A stretch of DNA of 64,000 bases from Minisyncoccota bacterium (GTDB lineage Bacteria; Patescibacteriota; Minisyncoccia; Phycocordibacterales; DATDWN01), in the NCBI GenBank assembly GCA_041674105.1, contig JBAYWK010000001.1:167114-231113 (forward strand), written 5' to 3'. Below the pieces are notes generated by a model that worked only from the letters and a program-made list of their open reading frames with translations, was not told the DNA's origin and searched no databases. The position numbers and the translations under genes are program-made. Positions 19,745 through 55,639 of this stretch are shown in pieces. Each line of letters starts with the position of its first letter. The first letter of the stretch is position 1.

Positions 19745-19834
19745 TGGCGGAGGAGGTGAGATTCGAACTCACGGTCCCCGTAAAGAGACTCCTGTTTTCA
19801 AGACAGGTGCAATCGGCCACTCTGCCACTCCTCC
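19745..19834 (-). tRNA. tRNA-Ser(TGA) copy 1, CCA encoded
   Basis: Class II tRNA. Anticodon loop CTTGAAA, long variable arm, T-arm GTGAG-TTCGAAT-CTCAC. Confidence 0.85.
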
Positions 19835-22277: not shown

Positions 22278-22364
22278 GCGGAGGAGGTGAGATTCGAACT
22301 CACGGTCCCCGTAAAGAGACTCCTGTTTTCAAGACAGGTGCAATCGGCCACTCTGCCACTCCTC
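22278..22364 (-). tRNA. tRNA-Ser(TGA) copy 2 (identical body, CCA not encoded)
   Basis: Identical to copy 1. Confidence 0.85.
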
Positions 22365-22375
22365 CATATTTTATA

Positions 22376-42203: not shown

Positions 42204-42626
42204 ATGATTTTAAAGGTTAAAAAACTTGATTCAGAAGCAATTTTGCCAAATTATGCGCATAGTTGGGATGCTGGGATAGATATGTTTTCAGTTGAAGATG
42301 TTACACTAGTTCCTGGTCAAATAGGTAAAATAAAAAGTGGTATAGCCGTAGAGATTCCAGAAGGTTTTGTTGGTCTTTGTTGGGATAAAAGTGGTTTATC
42401 TATGAACCATTCAATAAAAGTTATGGGTGGGGTGATAGATTCTGGGTTTAGAGGAGAGATTATTTTTGGAGTAATTAACCTAGGAAAAGAAAATTATACT
42501 TTTAAAAAAGGGGACAAGGTTTTACAGATGCTTATTCAGAAGGTTGAAAAAGTAGAGGTTGTGGAATTTAAAGAACTTTCTTTCACAGATAGAGGAGAAA
42601 AAGGTTTTGGAAGTACGGGAAAATAA
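42204..42626 (+). CDS. dut: dUTP diphosphatase
   Basis: AGIDMF and SGLSMN motifs. 140 aa. Confidence 0.8.
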   Translation: MILKVKKLDSEAILPNYAHSWDAGIDMFSVEDVTLVPGQIGKIKSGIAVEIPEGFVGLCWDKSGLSMNHSIKVMGGVIDSGFRGEIIFGVINLGKENYTFKKGDKVLQMLIQKVEKVEVVEFKELSFTDRGEKGFGSTGK

Positions 42627-42630
42627 TAAA

Positions 42631-44385
42631 ATGACAATACATCATAAGATAAAAAAATGGATAGAAGAAACATTAAAAGTTGATAAAGACTTTGTTTTGG
42701 AATATCCAGCAGATCCATCGCATGGTGATTTTGCTACAAACGTAGCTATGGTTGAATATAGAAAAATCTCAAAAATCCTTGATTCTAATGTTCCAGAGGG
42801 AAAACATAAAGAAGATGGATTAAGGTGGGTAGGTGAAGCAAATAATCCAAGAGAATTAGCAGAGAAGTATAAACAAATATTAGAAGAAAATAAAATAGAT
42901 GAGGTTTCCGGAGTTTTTGTAGCTGGTCCTGGGTTTATAAATATAACAATAGACCCAAAACTTTTTGCTTTGGCTATAGAAAAGATAGATAAAGTAGGGG
43001 AAACTTTTGGTGAAAATAAGCACTATGCAGGTTCTAGGTTTTTGATTGAATATGCCCAACCAAATCCTTTCAAAGAATTTCATATTGGTCATATGATGAA
43101 TAATGTCATAGGGGAGTCTGTAGCTAAACTTATTGAAAGCCAAGGAAATGAAGTTGTTAGATTTTCATATCATGGAGATGTTGGTCTTCATGTGGCTAAA
43201 ACTATTTGGGGAGTAATAAATCTAGGTGTTGGTACAAATTTAAATATAAAAACTTTGGGTCAAGCTTATGCTCTTGGAGCAAAATTTTATGAAGATGATG
43301 ATGTTGTTAAAAAAGAAATAATTGAAATAAATAAAAAAATTTACGATAAATCTGATCAAGAGATAAATATTTTGTATGATAAAGGTCGTCAAATTTCTTT
43401 GGATGATTTTGAAAAAATCTATGAAAGATTGGGTAGTCATTTTGATCATCACTTTTATGAAAGTGAATCAGCTCCAGTTGGTAAAAAATTGGTAGAGGAA
43501 TTTTTAGAGAAAGGTGTTTTTGAAAAAAGTGAAGGAGCTATTATTTTTAAAGGAGAAAAAGTTGGACTTCATACAAGAGTTTTTTTAAATTCTGATGGTT
43601 TGCCCACATATGAAGCAAAGGAAATTGGTTTGATGTATATAAAAAAAGAAAAATATTCTCCGTTTGATATTTCTATTACTGTTACGGCAAACGAACAAGA
43701 CGCATTTTTCAAGGTAGTAGAAAAAGCCCTAGAAGAAGTTTTTCCTGAATTAAATGGAAAGTTACTTCACTTGTCTCATGGTCTGATAAAACTTCCTTCT
43801 GGAAAGATGTCTTCTAGAACAGGAGATGTCTTAACAGCAGAGTGGATTATAGATACCCTTAAAGAGGGATCAATAAATAAAATACGTGAACCACTTATAT
43901 CTCCAGAAGAAAAGGAGATTATAGCTGAGATGGTCGCTTTAGGTGCTTTGAAATTTTCTATATTGCGCCAAGCTATAGGAGGAGATATTGTTTTTGATAT
44001 AAATAAAGCATTGTCTTTGGATGGAGACTCGGGACCATACTTACAATATTCAGTGGTTAGAGCCGAAGCTCTTTTGAGAAAGTCTAGAGGTCAGATAGAA
44101 ATATCGGGAAAACAACCCGAAGGTTGGAAGGTTACTCTTTTGGAGCGATTACTTGAAAGATTTCCATCTATCTTGGAGAGATCAACAAATGAATATGCTC
44201 CACATCATTTGGTTACTTATCTGACAGCTTTATCTTCAGAATTTAATTCTTTCTATTCAGTAGAAAAAATAATTGATAATGAAAATGTAAATTCATCTTA
44301 TAAACTAGCTATAGTTAAAGCTTTTATTTATGTTATGACTTCTGGTTTAAATATTTTAGGTATTAAAATTCCTGAAAGAATGTAG
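42631..44385 (+). CDS. argS: arginyl-tRNA synthetase
   Basis: DPSHGDFATNVAM. Class I HIGH-like motif. DALR C-terminal domain. Start set to MTIHHK at 42631, after the dut stop. Confidence 0.85.
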   Translation: MTIHHKIKKWIEETLKVDKDFVLEYPADPSHGDFATNVAMVEYRKISKILDSNVPEGKHKEDGLRWVGEANNPRELAEKYKQILEENKIDEVSGVFVAGPGFINITIDPKLFALAIEKIDKVGETFGENKHYAGSRFLIEYAQPNPFKEFHIGHMMNNVIGESVAKLIESQGNEVVRFSYHGDVGLHVAKTIWGVINLGVGTNLNIKTLGQAYALGAKFYEDDDVVKKEIIEINKKIYDKSDQEINILYDKGRQISLDDFEKIYERLGSHFDHHFYESESAPVGKKLVEEFLEKGVFEKSEGAIIFKGEKVGLHTRVFLNSDGLPTYEAKEIGLMYIKKEKYSPFDISITVTANEQDAFFKVVEKALEEVFPELNGKLLHLSHGLIKLPSGKMSSRTGDVLTAEWIIDTLKEGSINKIREPLISPEEKEIIAEMVALGALKFSILRQAIGGDIVFDINKALSLDGDSGPYLQYSVVRAEALLRKSRGQIEISGKQPEGWKVTLLERLLERFPSILERSTNEYAPHHLVTYLTALSSEFNSFYSVEKIIDNENVNSSYKLAIVKAFIYVMTSGLNILGIKIPERM

Positions 44386-44423: not shown

Positions 44424-47400
44424 ATGAAAGAAGAAGAGTCTAATAAAAGTGAAGTTGTCCAAAAAGAAGAAAAAATACTAGATTTTTGGCAAAAAAACAA
44501 AATTTTTGAAAAAACTTTGGAAAAAGAAAATCCAGAAGGCAATTTTGTTTTTTTCGATGGGCCACCTTTTGCAACTGGACTCCCTCATTACGGGCATATT
44601 TTGCCTGGAACAGTAAAAGATTTAATACCGAGGTATCAGACAATGAAAGGGAAGAAGGTCTTGCGTCGTTGGGGCTGGGATTGTCATGGATTACCAATAG
44701 AAAACTTGATAGAAAAAGAACTCGGTCTTTCTAGTAAAAGAGACATAGAAAAATATGGAGTAGAAAAATTTAACTTGGCTGCCAGAAATGCTGTGTTTAG
44801 ATACAGGGATGAATGGAAAAAAATAATTCCACGCTCTGGTAGATGGGTTGATATGGAAAATGATTACCGAACAATGGATTCAACTTATACTGAGTCTGTC
44901 TGGTGGTCTTTTAAAAATCTTTATGATAAAAAACTAATTTATAAAGATTTCAAAACAATGCATATTTGTCCGCATTGTGAGACAACTCTTTCAAATTTAG
45001 AGGTCAGTCAAGGTTACAAAGACATAACAGATATTTCTGTATACGTAAAAGTAAAACTTTTAGACGAAGAAAATACATTTGCTTTGATATGGACAACAAC
45101 TCCTTGGACTCTTCCTGGAAATGTAGCTTTGGCTGTAAATCCAGATTTTGATTATGTAAAAGCGAAAAAAGGTGATGTTTTTTTTATCTTATTAAAAGAT
45201 CTTGCTCTAAAAGTTTTGAAAGACAACTATGAAATCGTAGATGAATTTAAGGGAAAGAAGCTTGTAGGTAAATCATATGAGCCAATTTTCTCGTATTATA
45301 AAAATTCAAACTTGGATAATTTAGAAAATGCTTGGAAAATATATGATGCGGATTTTGTTGATGTAGAAACAGGAACAGGAATTGTTCATATCGCTAGTGC
45401 TTTTGGTGAAGATGATATGAATTTGGGTAAAAAAAATGAATTACCTTTTATTCAACATGTTGGTATGGATGGAACTTTTAAAGAGGAGGTTTCTTTTTTA
45501 GCTGGGCAAAAAGTTAAACCCATAGAGGATCATCAAAAATCAGATGTGGAAATAATAAAATATCTAGCGAAAGAAGGAAGTTTGTTTGCTAAAGAAAAAA
45601 TAATTCACTCTTATCCTCATTGCTGGAGATGTGCTACACCTCTTTTGAATTACGCTACCTCTTCTTGGTTTGTTAAGGTTACTCTCTTGAAAGATAAGAT
45701 GATAGATTTAAATAATAAAATAAACTGGAAGCCGGCTTTTATTGGGGAAGGTAGATTTGGTAATTGGTTGGAGGGAGCAAGAGATTGGAGTATTTCTCGG
45801 GGAAGGTTTTGGGGAGCACCTCTTCCTGTATGGGAAAATGAATCTGAAGAAAGATTTGTTATAGGTTCAGTAGAAGACCTAAAAAATTATATAGGAAGAA
45901 AAAACAAATATTTTCTAATGAGACATGCTGAGTCAGAAGACAATGCCCATGGCAACCTAATTAATTCTAAAGATACGACCATAAATCCTCTTACCGAAGA
46001 AGGTATTTCGCAAGCTAAAGCCTCTGTCAAAAATCTAAAAGATAAAAAAATAGATCTAATAATTCATTCTCCTTTTCTTCGCACAAAACAAACAAGTCAA
46101 ATAATTGCCGAAGAATTGGGTATACCCAAAGAATCTGTCTTGGAAGAAGAAAAAATAGTGGAATTACAAGCGGGGGAATATGATAGGAAATCATGGGAAG
46201 AGTTTATAGAAAACTTTTCTTCTATAAAAGAGAAGTTTGAAAAGAACATTGGGGAAGCTGAATCATGGGAAGATGTGAGAAAAAGATCAATGAGCTTTAT
46301 TTATGATATAGATTCAAAATATGAAGGTAAAAATATCTTGATCGTAAGTCACGGAGCTCCTCTAAATCTTATAATGATGGGGTCTAGAGGTTTTTCTACA
46401 AATCAGATGATTAAGTATTTTCATAGCGATATCTTTAGTAATGCTGAAATAAAAGAATGTGATTTTGTCTCTCTCCCTCATAATGAAAAATATGAAATAG
46501 ATTTGCATAGACCTTATATAGATGATGTCGTTCTTAAGGATAAAAAAGGGAATCTTTTGAAAAGAGTTCCAGAGGTTTTTGATACTTGGTATGACTCTGG
46601 ATCTATGTCTTTTGCTCAACAACATTATCCTTTTGAAAATAAAGAGTTATTTGAGTCTAAAAATAATTCTCTATTTCCAGCGGATTTTATAGCTGAAGGA
46701 TTGGACCAGACTAGAGGTTGGTTTTATACACTACTTGTTTTGGGCACAGGTCTATTTAATAAATCTCCATACAATAGTGTGATTGTGAACGGTTTGGTTT
46801 TGGCTGAGGACGGTAGAAAAATGTCAAAGAGTTTGAAAAACTATCCAGATCCGATGGATATAATAAATAAATATGGAGCAGATGCTTTAAGGTATTACCT
46901 CATGTCTTCTTCTGTTGTTAGAACTGAAGATCTAAATTTTTCGGAAAAAGGTGTAGACGAGATATATAAAAAACTTATACAAAAGATTTATAACGTCCTA
47001 TCTTTTTATCAGATGTATTCTACAGATTATGTTTCTGTATATGAAAAAAGTTCAAATGTACTGGACCAATGGATTGTTTATAGGTTAAAAGAGTTGTTGG
47101 ACACAGTTACTAAACATTTAGATAGTTACGAAATAGAGAAAGCAGCAAGACCTATAATGGATTTTGTTGAAGATTTATCTACTTGGTATATAAGGAGATC
47201 TAGGGAAAGATTTAAATCAGATAACTTTCAAGATAGAAAAGATGTTTCTGATACGACATCATATATTTTAAAAGAATTATCAAAAATAATGGCTCCCATA
47301 ACACCTTTTATTGCTGAAGAGGTTTATTTGGAAATAACAAAAGGTTTAAAAAAGGAAAGTGTTCATTTAGAAAAGTGGCCAAATTTGAAAGAAATAGTTA

Positions 47401-47867
47401 TTGACCAAAATGTTTTAGATAATATGTCCAAAACTAGAGAAATTGTTTCAAAAGCTTTAGATCTGAGACAAGCTTCAGGTATAAAAGTAAGACAACCATT
47501 AGCATCTTTGATTGTAGAGGATAATTTATCAGAAGAATTTTTTAATATAATTGCTGATGAGGTTAATGTTAAGAAGGTCAGCCCTTCTCCAAGCCCGTCT
47601 CAGGAAAATTTTGAAATGTTTTTAGATACAAATATAACAGACGATCTTTTTGAAGAAGGCTTAGCTAGAGAGATAATAAGAGAGATTCAGGATTTAAGGA
47701 AAAAGGAAAATTTTGACCCAAATCAAAAAGTAAAAATAAAATTACTATCTGATAAAAAAACAAAAAATATCTTTGATAAATATCTTGAGATGATATCTAA
47801 AGTAACCCTGGTTTCAGAAGTTGAATATGAAGAAAGTGACGAAAGGTCTATTTCTGTCATAGTTTAA
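44424..47867 (+). CDS. ileS: isoleucyl-tRNA synthetase (type 2) with an inserted histidine-phosphatase (PGAM-like) domain of about 205 aa
   Basis: HYGH, WTTTPWTLPGN, KMSKS. The insert at roughly nt 45885-46500 contains LMRHAESEDN and LIVSHGAPL, placed between ...PVWENESEERFVIGSVEDL and DLHRPYIDDV. Confidence 0.85.
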   Translation: MKEEESNKSEVVQKEEKILDFWQKNKIFEKTLEKENPEGNFVFFDGPPFATGLPHYGHILPGTVKDLIPRYQTMKGKKVLRRWGWDCHGLPIENLIEKELGLSSKRDIEKYGVEKFNLAARNAVFRYRDEWKKIIPRSGRWVDMENDYRTMDSTYTESVWWSFKNLYDKKLIYKDFKTMHICPHCETTLSNLEVSQGYKDITDISVYVKVKLLDEENTFALIWTTTPWTLPGNVALAVNPDFDYVKAKKGDVFFILLKDLALKVLKDNYEIVDEFKGKKLVGKSYEPIFSYYKNSNLDNLENAWKIYDADFVDVETGTGIVHIASAFGEDDMNLGKKNELPFIQHVGMDGTFKEEVSFLAGQKVKPIEDHQKSDVEIIKYLAKEGSLFAKEKIIHSYPHCWRCATPLLNYATSSWFVKVTLLKDKMIDLNNKINWKPAFIGEGRFGNWLEGARDWSISRGRFWGAPLPVWENESEERFVIGSVEDLKNYIGRKNKYFLMRHAESEDNAHGNLINSKDTTINPLTEEGISQAKASVKNLKDKKIDLIIHSPFLRTKQTSQIIAEELGIPKESVLEEEKIVELQAGEYDRKSWEEFIENFSSIKEKFEKNIGEAESWEDVRKRSMSFIYDIDSKYEGKNILIVSHGAPLNLIMMGSRGFSTNQMIKYFHSDIFSNAEIKECDFVSLPHNEKYEIDLHRPYIDDVVLKDKKGNLLKRVPEVFDTWYDSGSMSFAQQHYPFENKELFESKNNSLFPADFIAEGLDQTRGWFYTLLVLGTGLFNKSPYNSVIVNGLVLAEDGRKMSKSLKNYPDPMDIINKYGADALRYYLMSSSVVRTEDLNFSEKGVDEIYKKLIQKIYNVLSFYQMYSTDYVSVYEKSSNVLDQWIVYRLKELLDTVTKHLDSYEIEKAARPIMDFVEDLSTWYIRRSRERFKSDNFQDRKDVSDTTSYILKELSKIMAPITPFIAEEVYLEITKGLKKESVHLEKWPNLKEIVIDQNVLDNMSKTREIVSKALDLRQASGIKVRQPLASLIVEDNLSEEFFNIIADEVNVKKVSPSPSPSQENFEMFLDTNITDDLFEEGLAREIIREIQDLRKKENFDPNQKVKIKLLSDKKTKNIFDKYLEMISKVTLVSEVEYEESDERSISVIV

Positions 47868-48451
47868 TGTCTTATCATATATATACAACAGCTGGTATAG
47901 TTTTGAAAAAGAATCATTTTAATGAGGCTAATTCTTTGTTCTATATCTTAACAGAAGATTTGGGACTAATAATTGCTTCTGCTCAAGGGGTTAGACTCCA
48001 GTCTTCAAAGTTAGGTAGTTCTTTGCAGGAATTTTCTTTAGTAACCCTTTCTTGTGTTAAAGGTAAAGGGGGTTGGAAAATAACAAACTCTATAGCCAGA
48101 GAAAATTTTTTCTTTGATAAACCTATTTATGTTCAGAAATTCATTACGAATTTGTCTAGAGTTTTAATTCGTATGATGCCAGGAGAAGAAAATAACCAAG
48201 ATATTTTTTATTTAGTTGAAGGATCTTTTTCTTGGTTAAAGAATTTGAGCAAGGAAAGTATAGATTCGTTTGAGATACTTTGCAATTTAAGGGTTTTACA
48301 TAACCTGGGGTATGTGGATAGAAACCCTGGTACAGAAGTATTTTTGGGATCTTCGGATAAATGGGACGAGCTATTACTCTGCAAGGTTTTAAAAAATAAA
48401 AATCTCCTGTTGGGCTATATAAATAAAGGTTTGAAAGAAAGCCATTTGTGA
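47867..48451 (+). CDS. recO: DNA repair protein RecO-like (short form)
   Basis: TTAGIVLKKNHFNEANSLFYILTEDLGLIIASAQGVR fits the N-terminal OB fold. Confidence 0.45.
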   Translation: MSYHIYTTAGIVLKKNHFNEANSLFYILTEDLGLIIASAQGVRLQSSKLGSSLQEFSLVTLSCVKGKGGWKITNSIARENFFFDKPIYVQKFITNLSRVLIRMMPGEENNQDIFYLVEGSFSWLKNLSKESIDSFEILCNLRVLHNLGYVDRNPGTEVFLGSSDKWDELLLCKVLKNKNLLLGYINKGLKESHL

Positions 48452-54208: not shown

Positions 54209-54211
54209 ATT

Positions 54212-55639
54212 ATGATTAAAACCTTTTATATAACCACTCCAATATTTTACCCAAATGCGAATTTACATATGGGTCATGCATACACAGTAACTGTCTGTGA
54301 TATTTTAACTAGGTACCACAAACTTGTAGGAGAAGAAACTTATTTTTTAACTGGTTCAGATGAAAACACGGGAAAGATTTTGAAAGCAGTAGAAGAAAGA
54401 GGTGAGAAAGTTTCAGATTATTTAGATGCAATATCAGAAAATTTTAAAAATTTATATAAAAGTTTGGACATTTCTTATGACCAGTTCATAAGAACGAGTG
54501 ATAAAAAAAATCATTGGCCTGGAGCTTTGGCTATGTGGGAGAGGCTTGTTTCTTCTGGTGATATATACAAAGCTACTTACAAGGGTTTATATTGTGTCGG
54601 TTGTGAGACTTTTTATAAAGAGAAAGATTTGGTGGATGGTAAATGCCCAATTCATCAGACAATTCCAGAAGAAATAGAAGAAGATAATTATTTTTTTAGA
54701 CTTTCAAAATATTCTGTTAAGATAAAAGAAAAAATAAGAAACGAGGAAATAAAAATTGTTCCAACATCAAGAAAAAATGAAATTCTTGCTCTACTCGATA
54801 GAGGACTTGAAGATGTTAGTTTTTCTCGTCCTATAAAAAATGTTCCACACGGAATACCTGTACCAAATGATCCAGAACAGGTTATTTATGTTTGGTGTGA
54901 TGCTTTAGTTAACTATATTTCTGCCTTAGGTTTTGGTAGAGATGATGATTTGTTTAAGAAATTTTGGCCAGCTGATGTGCATGTAATAGGTAAAGATATA
55001 CTTCGTTTTCACACTGCTATATGGCCGGCAATGCTTATGTCAGCCAACCTTCCTCTTCCAAAATCAGTCTTTGTTCATGGTCTTATAACTTCTGGTGGAG
55101 TAAAAATGTCAAAAACTTTGGGTAATGTTGTTGATCCTTATGATTTAATAAATCAGTATGGTAGAGATGCTGTTAGGTATTATTTTGCTAGAGAAATTTC
55201 ACCATTTGAAGATGGAGATTTAACTGTTGAGAGATTTAAAGAAAGCTACAATGCAAATTTAGCAAATGGCGTTGGTAATTTGGTTTCCAGAATAATGAAA
55301 ATGTCAGAAGATAATCTAGACAAGCCCATAGAAATACCAGAGTTTAAATTATCTGATGAATACAAAAAATATTTAGAAAATTTTGAAATAAATAAGGCCT
55401 GTGATCTTGTTTGGCAAGAAATAGGAGATATAGATAAGTACATTCAAGATAATAAACCATTTAAGATTGTTAAAGAAAACAAAGAAGAGGGAGTAAAGAT
55501 GATAAAAGAGCTTGTGTCTAAACTTTATATGGTGGCAACTCTTTTAGAGCCGATTATGCCAGAAACATCAGGAAAAATAAAAGGACTTGTAAAATTAAAT
55601 AAATCTCCAGAAAAGCCTCTGTTTTTAAGAAAGGAGTAA
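54212..55639 (+). CDS. metG: methionyl-tRNA synthetase, short form lacking the C-terminal tRNA-binding domain
   Basis: PNANLHMGHAYT, zinc knuckle CVGCE...CPIH, KMSKT. Confidence 0.85.
   Translation: MIKTFYITTPIFYPNANLHMGHAYTVTVCDILTRYHKLVGEETYFLTGSDENTGKILKAVEERGEKVSDYLDAISENFKNLYKSLDISYDQFIRTSDKKNHWPGALAMWERLVSSGDIYKATYKGLYCVGCETFYKEKDLVDGKCPIHQTIPEEIEEDNYFFRLSKYSVKIKEKIRNEEIKIVPTSRKNEILALLDRGLEDVSFSRPIKNVPHGIPVPNDPEQVIYVWCDALVNYISALGFGRDDDLFKKFWPADVHVIGKDILRFHTAIWPAMLMSANLPLPKSVFVHGLITSGGVKMSKTLGNVVDPYDLINQYGRDAVRYYFAREISPFEDGDLTVERFKESYNANLANGVGNLVSRIMKMSEDNLDKPIEIPEFKLSDEYKKYLENFEINKACDLVWQEIGDIDKYIQDNKPFKIVKENKEEGVKMIKELVSKLYMVATLLEPIMPETSGKIKGLVKLNKSPEKPLFLRKE

Follow-up and report, generated by a model that had tools for sequence, protein, structure and literature searches.

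A histidine phosphatase domain carried within, or encoded beside, the isoleucyl-tRNA synthetase of Patescibacteria

The isoleucyl-tRNA synthetase (IleRS) gene, ileS, of a Minisyncoccota bacterium encodes a histidine phosphatase domain in the interior of the synthetase. The gene lies in a stretch of 64,000 nucleotides (nt) that we analyzed as a whole and call the window (GenBank assembly GCA_041674105.1, contig JBAYWK010000001.1, positions 167,114 to 231,113 of the forward strand). A complete phosphatase, predicted to be catalytically competent, is built into the CP3 surface loop of the IleRS catalytic body. In some lineages the phosphatase is a separate protein of ~190 amino acids (aa), whose gene runs up to or over the ileS start codon. 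In other lineages the same protein is inserted one to four times in IleRS surface loops via short linkers, and the inserted and separate forms seem to substitute for each other. We lean towards the view that an active phosphatase has been selected to be kept on IleRS, as a dedicated partner of the enzyme in a Patescibacteria subfamily. The clade-wide fusion, the separate gene upstream of ileS, and the several copies at several sites are new beyond the initial annotation, which was made from the letters of the window alone.

The phosphatase domain and its host enzyme

The gene and its parts, by window position, are:

44424..47867, + strand: ileS, type-2 isoleucyl-tRNA synthetase with embedded phosphatase, 1147 aa, TAA stop included (open reading frame, ORF; TIGR00392)
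44586..44597, + strand: HIGH signature HYGH (aa 55-58), synthetic site (checked translation)
45090..45110, + strand: Thr-rich motif WTTTPWT of the editing domain (aa 223-229; checked translation)
45831..45863, + strand: first half of the CP3 zinc knuckle, WENESEERFVI (aa 470-480), cysteines lost (CxxC in relatives)
45864..45902, + strand: CP3 helix and short N-side linker GSVEDLKNYIGRK (aa 481-493; model and comparison)
45903..46481, + strand: histidine phosphatase (branch 1) domain, aa 494-686 (Pfam match aa 497-667, nt 45912-46424)
45921..45944, + strand: catalytic motif RHAESEDN with R500, predicted nucleophile H501, and N507 (120-fusion alignment)
46080..46082, + strand: R553, predicted second phosphate-binding arginine (kept in 120/120)
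46161..46163, + strand: E580, putative proton donor (E in 119/120, D in 1/120)
46347..46355, + strand: SHG motif with the predicted second catalytic histidine, H643 (kept in 120/120)
46467..46499, + strand: insert-specific C-side linker VSLPHNEKYEI (aa 682-692), its first five residues within the phosphatase domain
46500..46559, + strand: IleRS resumes (DLHRPYID...), with the second knuckle half VLKDKKGNLL (aa 703-712), cysteines lost (alignment)
46818..46832, + strand: KMSKS loop (aa 799-803; checked translation)

The inserted domain is a branch-1 histidine phosphatase of family PF00300 and belongs to no curated functional family. Pfam His_Phos_1 matches aa 497-667 of the whole protein (E=1.8e-32, 113 bits, cut-off 21.7) and the excised segment alone (nt 45885-46500, aa 488-692; E=5.8e-34, 117.9 bits). 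Chance is excluded as the source of the match because of these profile E-values and the 120 homologues that share the architecture. The domain is ~195 aa long and is modeled confidently by AlphaFold, both alone (predicted local distance difference test, pLDDT, 92.4) and in the full-length protein (pLDDT 90.9, predicted template-modeling score 0.84, with the 10-residue blocks of the insert at 87-97). Foldseek gives 263 matches in the PDB for the domain model at E<=0.001, the best being H. thermophilus phosphoserine phosphatase (4ij5/4ij6, template-modeling (TM) score 0.81). Next come PhoE, the riboflavin-pathway HFP, Rv2419c, and CobC, all compact phosphomonoesterases of ~200 aa; the longer dPGM/BPGM structures fit less well (TM normalised to target 0.55-0.64). 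The insert shares fold (TM 0.74-0.82), size, and catalytic residues with iPSP1 (4ij5), PhoE (1h2e), CobC (6nru, 6e4b), HFP (9mmh), and Rv2419c, but is only 16-26% identical to them, is embedded in another enzyme, and belongs to a subfamily tied to ileS.

Curated functional profiles were all missed. The scores against their cut-offs are 92 versus 225 bits and 30.6 versus 81.7 for cofactor-dependent phosphoglycerate mutases (NF038349 dPGM_arch and TIGR01258), 80.1 versus 162.9 bits for alpha-ribazole phosphatase CobC (TIGR03162), and 34.8 versus 74.5 bits for phosphohistidine phosphatase SixA (TIGR00249), where the N-terminal half alone matches. Phosphoserine phosphatase PspA (NF045917), although the best structural neighbor, is missed at 72.8 versus 350 bits.

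The active site is conserved far beyond the rest of the domain. R500, H501, R553, and H643 are kept in all 120 fusions and N507 and E580 in 119, and the RHG nucleophile, second Arg, acidic donor, and second His that define the superfamily are all present. Residue 502 is Ala in the window IleRS and Gly in 117 of the 120. Pairwise conservation of the domain as a whole is 44%, about that of the C-terminal domain, versus 65-75% for the catalytic core. A conserved active site amid a drifting domain is the pattern expected of a site that works. A degenerate structural insert, which the initial annotation had offered as one option, is disfavored because the catalytic residues are invariant.

Other predictions of that annotation fared well. 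Its 1147-aa IleS ORF, its histidine phosphatase, and both signature motifs (RHAESEDN at nt 45921-45944, SHG at nt 46347-46355) are borne out by the profiles, the domain model, and Foldseek. It had also proposed a Pfam run on the insert, an AlphaFold model, and a survey of Patescibacteria IleRS; these gave, respectively, the significant match and confident histidine-phosphatase fold described above, and an insert present across the clade.

The host is a type-2 (eukaryote-like) IleRS. The ORF scores 882.7 bits against the isoleucyl-tRNA synthetase equivalog TIGR00392 (cut-off 621.4), placing it in that family. Its best solved relatives are the IleRS2 structures 8c8v/8c8u (8c8v is P. megaterium IleRS2) at 778 bits, versus ~306 bits for the IleRS1 structures 8c9e/1ffy, and the C-terminal PF19302 domain is present. 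The HYGH, WTTTPWT (editing), and KMSKS motifs are all intact. Across 110 homologues, H55 and G57 are invariant and H58 nearly so; W223, T224-T226, P227, and W228 are invariant and T229 nearly so; K799 and K802 are invariant. The protein is identical to public protein P0077, which NCBI assigns to a metagenome-assembled genome of Candidatus Paceibacterota (phylum Minisyncoccota in current taxonomy). P0077 and its relatives are named merely “class I tRNA ligase family protein” by NCBI, despite scoring above the TIGR00392 cut-off, and the insert divides the IleRS profile match into two stretches. No second ileS or second His_Phos gene was found within the window, and the only other class I match there is weak (54209-55636). 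The window gene is thus the sole ileS in the window, and is most likely the sole, essential isoleucyl-tRNA synthetase of the cell.

Residues 10-488 align to 9-476 of the 8c8v chain and residues 686-1055 to 480-850, leaving ~197 residues in the window IleRS where 8c8v has ~3. The segment between CP2 and the second Rossmann half is the CP3 subdomain in the nomenclature of Chung et al. 2020 (PMC7191050); CP3 carries a zinc-binding motif in Thermus IleRS, and its topology differs among solved IleRS (PMC7191050). The insertion site is the loop between the two halves of the CP3 zinc knuckle, which is not replaced, and relatives have the layout CxxC...IGSxxELK-[phosphatase]-...DLHRPYID...CxC. The initial annotation had put an insert of about 205 aa at 45885-46500 in place of the zinc knuckle; its length and position agree with the 8c8v alignment, but the domain sits inside the knuckle loop.

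The free-standing protein is inserted whole. Its N-terminus (M..NKYFLLRHG) aligns from residue 494 of the window IleRS and its C-terminus (..GEIREL) with residues 673-681. On the N side, the sequence GSVEDLKNYIGRK is common to un-inserted IleRS; the model has a helix at 483-490 and the first phosphatase strand from 495. On the C side, a linker with the pattern hydrophobic-P-x-N/D-x3-E/D-hydrophobic occurs in nearly all CP3 inserts and is absent from the un-inserted IleRS loops and free-standing phosphatases that we compared.

The Thermus-type knuckle (PMC7191050; 1ile, 8c8v) occupies the same subdomain of the same type of host, and some relatives keep its four cysteines around the insert. It differs in that the loop is 209-232 residues long in insert-bearing enzymes, versus 22-32 in un-inserted relatives, and in that the window protein has no zinc ligands, all four knuckle cysteines being gone. 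The cysteines are kept in 46 of the 120 fusions, all four are lost in 73, and a single Cys remains in 1; all four are kept in 33/33 un-inserted IleRS examined. Because zinc ligands are lost solely in insert-bearing enzymes, the folded domain may have become a new clamp that would hold the knuckle halves together and make the ligands dispensable. This would be a clean natural example of a folded domain replacing a metal clamp. Lys/Ser/Asn-rich low-complexity insertions also occur near the knuckle, in the first knuckle half of L034, where the stretch between its two cysteines includes SLRTIGPSLKIKNQKSKIKNQKP, and in the CP2 region of L066 and L087. These indicate that the region tolerates length variation.

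Distribution, linkage to ileS and copy number

All of the best 120 IleRS homologues (54-100% identity) carry both PF00133 and PF00300. Their named sources are Paceibacterota, Zambryskibacteria, Minisyncoccia, and the Parcubacteria/Patescibacteria group. An exhaustive profile search gave 492 clusters (50% identity) at E<=1e-30. Complete genomes with the module include CP179887.1 and AP024682.1.

A search with the insert alone recovered three fusion fragments and ~70 proteins of ~190 aa. Five of these free-standing proteins were traced to contigs, and four lie immediately upstream of an un-inserted ileS (931-963 aa). Two of the four genes overlap ileS by 4 nt (L002 and L006, by JGI gene calls). 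The gene order at these loci is that of the window: argS, phosphatase, ileS, a recO-like gene, and a large surface protein. The fifth and most distant protein, P0066, follows a class II synthetase rather than ileS. It is 179 aa long (L008 3520-6737), and its gene starts at the last base of the synthetase gene (tRNA-synt_2, 493 aa, LysRS-like by size), with acetate kinase next. This is a second synthetase-phosphatase adjacency, outside the ileS-linked subfamily.

We scanned one genome per species for loci of the subfamily and obtained 80, which were classified according to their tblastn matches to the N-terminal part, the insert, and the C-terminal part of the window IleRS. Two are uninformative owing to contig ends, leaving 78. 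The phosphatase is inserted in ileS in 40 of the 80 loci (two of these cut by contig ends), directly upstream of ileS in 29, and upstream with one or two intervening genes in 8. Only one (L081) is unlinked, so that 77 of 78 informative loci are linked to ileS. The two arrangements are mutually exclusive at every locus: 40/40 loci with an insert have no separate gene, and 37/37 with a separate gene have no insert. Among 27 adjacent loci, 22 have a spacing of -4 to +15 nt between the phosphatase stop and the ileS start; a promoter would not fit there, and such spacing is typical of translationally coupled genes.

The conserved neighbors in the window are:

42559..44385, + strand: argS, upstream neighbor (Pfam tRNA-synt_1d, DALR_1, Arg_tRNA_synt_N)
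47867..48451, + strand: recO-like gene, conserved downstream neighbor (RecO_N, E=3.5e-10)

The ATG of the recO-like gene overlaps the ileS stop (TAATG, 47865-47869). Related loci share the order argS, ileS, recO, surface protein, both with and without an inserted phosphatase, and in L005 and L010 the separate phosphatase gene sits between argS and ileS.

Copy number and fusions were surveyed in the best 150 representatives. One phosphatase domain in IleRS was found in 64, two in IleRS in 9, two without a detectable IleRS part in 9, and four in one (P0197, truncated). A first tally counted 67 as single free-standing phosphatases, including at least seven IleRS-fusion fragments and a TsaC fusion (P0250). 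The dominant insertion site is CP3 (flanks ~470-490 and 690-710). The second copy of P0262, P0285, and P0214 (the last of which is a complete ORF of 1419 aa within its contig) lies between ~866 and 877, in the loop before the anticodon-binding helices. P0226 has its second copy after HYPFENK, at about residue 740, and P0197 has one copy upstream of the RDWxISR motif and three more after it. There are at least four insertion sites overall, which the model places in surface loops.

Identity between the copies of a single protein is mostly 23-45%, reaching 52% in P0197 and 71% in P0335. Among tandem pairs, the first copies cluster together (52-57%), as do the second copies (42-46%). The low identity and this grouping indicate that the multi-copy states are old and inherited, not assembly artefacts. 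The core R, H, R, E, and H are kept in nearly all complete copies of multi-copy IleRS; the few exceptions to the full catalytic set include the RHAREEH third copy of P0197.

End-to-end fusion, with the phosphatase followed by a full IleRS, was not found among the 150 representatives. Such a fusion would be mutationally easy, as a one-base slip in the 4-nt overlap would create it. Internal placement is preferred over an easy terminal fusion. No ArgRS-phosphatase fusion was found among the proteins checked of these 150, though argS adjoins the phosphatase gene in L005 and L010.

The same phosphatase subfamily also occurs at the C-terminus of a TsaC/Sua5/YrdC domain (threonylcarbamoyl-AMP synthase, for the t6A37 modification of tRNA), in P0250 (L093 977-2140), P0345, P0346, and P0347, which form four clusters that are 52-65% identical. 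There is no ileS on the 3.7-kb contig of L093. Patescibacterial TsaC (P0348-P0461) is fused to many partners, the commonest being the methylguanine-DNA methyltransferase domain PF01035 (Ogt); others are TruB, a 2H/LigT-type phosphoesterase, NUDIX, DNA glycosylase, and GNAT. We considered the TsaC-phosphatase fusion as a functional clue and downgraded it, as TsaC fuses here with many unrelated partners. This promiscuity calls for caution in reading function from fusions in these genomes.

A neighbor-joining tree of the IleRS backbone (905 columns, 108 sequences) requires 6 changes of state, with 5-6 in 200/200 bootstraps, and permuted states need ~28. The domain tree interleaves the inserted and separate forms, and mean domain identity is 37% between the forms versus 39% within the inserted form. 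The shared C-side linker favors a common origin for most CP3 inserts. There may have been one to a few CP3 origins, or the separate-gene state may have been regained, or the trees may be in error. A tandem duplication of the phosphatase and the IleRS N-part, followed by two deletions, could interconvert both arrangements. At the seven tracked positions, inserted copies mostly have R-H-N-R-E-E-H and free-standing proteins mostly R-H-Q-R-D-E-H, the latter mostly carrying Asp at the E580 position. Inserted copies in P0220, P0259, and P0301 carry the free-standing-type Asp donor, and P0220 and P0259 also the Gln, which suggests later, separate captures.

Possible function and rival explanations

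If the phosphatase is an active, dedicated partner of IleRS, which we think somewhat probable, its residues predict a phosphomonoesterase with a phospho-histidine intermediate at H501, in which the phosphate would be bound by R500, R553, and H643 and E580 would donate a proton to the leaving group. Selection would keep the phosphatase physically on IleRS, where it would act on a phosphorylated molecule met there. Our guesses at the substrate are, in descending order, a phosphate at the tRNA acceptor end, a small phospho-metabolite or inhibitor, and a phosphate on IleRS itself. The initial annotation had guessed at editing or at (p)ppGpp/Ap4A-like chemistry.

Several points weigh against this. 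The canonical aminoacylation cycle contains no phosphomonoester, and we know of no phosphate ester in the IleRS cycle. The gene order could be partly inherited, since argS-ileS-recO synteny is also conserved and recO bears no relation to IleRS. Unrelated functions can fuse in these genomes (TsaC with Ogt, TruB, NUDIX, and others). The domain is acidic (median isoelectric point 5.7), giving no support for RNA binding, and the several insertion sites argue against a single precise channeling geometry. The motif used for the locus scan came from this subfamily, and the linkage counts therefore describe the subfamily and not all His_Phos genes.

The main rival, which we regard as possible though doubtful, is a housekeeping small-molecule phosphatase (phosphoserine-phosphatase-like or short mutase-like) that sits in the ileS operon by descent and was fused in the course of streamlining, with no coupling to aminoacylation. 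The nearest structures are all small-molecule phosphomonoesterases, the best NCBIfam matches are dPGM_arch, CobC, and PspA, and the acidity of the domain, its varying insertion site, the conserved synteny, and functionally unrelated fusions such as TsaC-Ogt all suit it. All curated equivalog cut-offs are missed, however, and such an enzyme would not be expected to fuse only internally, in four loops of an essential enzyme, with 2-4 copies long retained and never end to end. The lack of any fusion to ArgRS, the other neighbor in some loci, the strict mutual exclusivity of the two forms, and the linkage of 77/78 loci to ileS also tell against it.

A more specific version of the partnership with IleRS, which we rate as unlikely, is a phosphatase for tRNA ends or tRNA marks that clears 3′/2′-phosphates, cyclic phosphates, or toxin-added pyrophosphate and so enables charging of tRNA-Ile. 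The insertion sites are surface loops of the tRNA-binding body (CP3, the loop before the anticodon helices, and after HYPFENK). The same domain is rarely fused to TsaC, another tRNA enzyme, and the TsaC product t6A37 is an IleRS identity element, but TsaC is promiscuous as a fusion partner. The acidity of the domain is again unfavorable, no His_Phos enzyme with activity on RNA ends is known to us, and there is no evident reason for tRNA-Ile alone to need such service. In favor, tRNA-species-specific 3′-CCA pyrophosphorylation by toxSAS enzymes is documented (PMC11559606). Against it, the insert and two free-standing relatives match no family of the PADLOC anti-phage defence profiles at E<=0.01.

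A mainly structural or regulatory role (zinc-knuckle replacement, dimerisation, or sensing of a phospho-metabolite), with catalysis incidental, is very unlikely in our view. The loss of zinc ligands solely where the domain is present fits it, as do the short, rigid linkers with their conserved common motif. iPSP1 is one of the relatives that function as dimers, and an internal dimer could arise from tandem pairs. Near-complete catalytic conservation at ~40% overall identity, in nearly all extra copies too, is nevertheless hard to explain without chemistry. Separate-gene lineages keep an intact zinc knuckle, so CP3 is stable without the domain and stabilisation cannot be its primary function.

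An artefact or selfish element (assembly chimera, intein, or mobile insertion) can be set aside almost entirely, though repeated insertion at several sites and in tandem superficially resembles mobile DNA. The frame is unbroken, the architecture recurs in 120 homologues from many samples, copies within a protein have mostly diverged to 23-45% identity, and GC content is uniform along the gene. An intein or mobile element is effectively refuted: no Hint or endonuclease profile matches the window IleRS, and the junctions (GRKN|KYF on the N side; PHN then E on the C side, not HN-C/S/T) are unfit for splicing. The initial annotation had likewise judged the insert not to be an intein.

The partnership with IleRS admits a bolder form, which we can only put forward as improbable: the IleRS-bound phosphatase may be a new class of synthetase accessory enzyme, akin in logic to editing domains and trans-editing factors, that erases a phosphate blocking charging. 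The block might be on the acceptor end of tRNA-Ile, as a toxin-added 3′-(pyro)phosphate or a 3′/cyclic phosphate left by a nuclease. Alternatively it might be on IleRS itself or on a phosphorylated inhibitor directed at IleRS. Selection would then have repeatedly pulled the phosphatase onto the synthetase in cis.

Known systems and further observations

Synthetases are among the best-studied enzymes, and extra domains in them usually signal extra chemistry (editing, signaling, or resistance). Accessory hydrolases are known in cis and in trans, as with the INS domain of ProRS and free-standing YbaK/ProXp, or the editing domain of AlaRS and AlaX. These editing pairs are the closest analogy in logic to the IleRS phosphatase, a hydrolytic module being joined to the synthetase or separate according to lineage. 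They differ in that the ProRS and AlaRS modules are aminoacyl-tRNA deacylases of other folds with a known substrate, whereas the module here is a histidine phosphatase. The window IleRS also has its own intact CP1 editing domain.

Two curated families offer partial parallels. In the bifunctional RNase H/acid phosphatase NF005567 (Rv2228c type), a CobC-like histidine phosphatase is likewise joined to a nucleic-acid enzyme; the insert scores 65.6 bits against its cut-off of 326. We take that family to be a simple end-to-end fusion, unlike the internal IleRS insert. NF040702 (ileS_w_GNAT) is an IleRS hosting a foreign catalytic domain that curators have catalogued, though the domain differs from the phosphatase and the cut-off is missed (324.8 versus 1999 bits). 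We found no published paper on the IleRS-GNAT architecture in the full-text literature. The initial annotation knew of no described synthetase-phosphatase fusion of this kind, and we too found no description of the IleRS-phosphatase pairing in that literature, nor in a 2026 study with a database of 96,219 IleRS sequences and their domain architectures. A synthetase with an accessory catalytic domain is thus of a known kind; the predicted phosphatase activity and the multi-copy, multi-site, cis/trans behavior are new.

If the phosphatase is active and its pairing with IleRS indeed obligate across this large lineage, the pairing would imply a phosphate-dependent step around isoleucine charging that lies outside the textbook cycle, and the cis/trans pair offers a ready experimental handle. 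Surveys of pathways and completeness in Patescibacteria could miscount ileS, because the insert splits the profile match and the NCBI name is generic, or could count the “phosphoglycerate mutase family” match inside the synthetase.

Three insert-bearing ileS genes carry unexpected organism labels. L040 and L082 (labeled Pacearchaeota archaeon) and L056 (labeled Humimicrobiaceae) are typical of Patescibacteria; the IleRS tree puts L040 and L082 directly within Patescibacteria and L056 together with L091. Errors of binning or naming probably explain the labels. An apparent tandem second ileS in L082 was rejected, the upstream gene being valS. In L001 (4419-6672, P0003) an insert-bearing ileS is broken up over three ORFs, and Tyr stands in place of the second catalytic His of the phosphatase (IVTYEG), either because the copy is decaying or through sequencing errors. 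Genes for a PemK toxin and a Pif1-type helicase lie on the same contig.

In the window, the weak class I match at 54209-55636 (+) is a synthetase-like ORF of ~476 aa (IleRS-backbone match, E=4e-13). No tRNA-Ile gene was found among the eight tRNA genes of the window, which include two for tRNA-Ser(UGA), at 19745-19834 and 22278-22365 (-), 2.5 kb apart.

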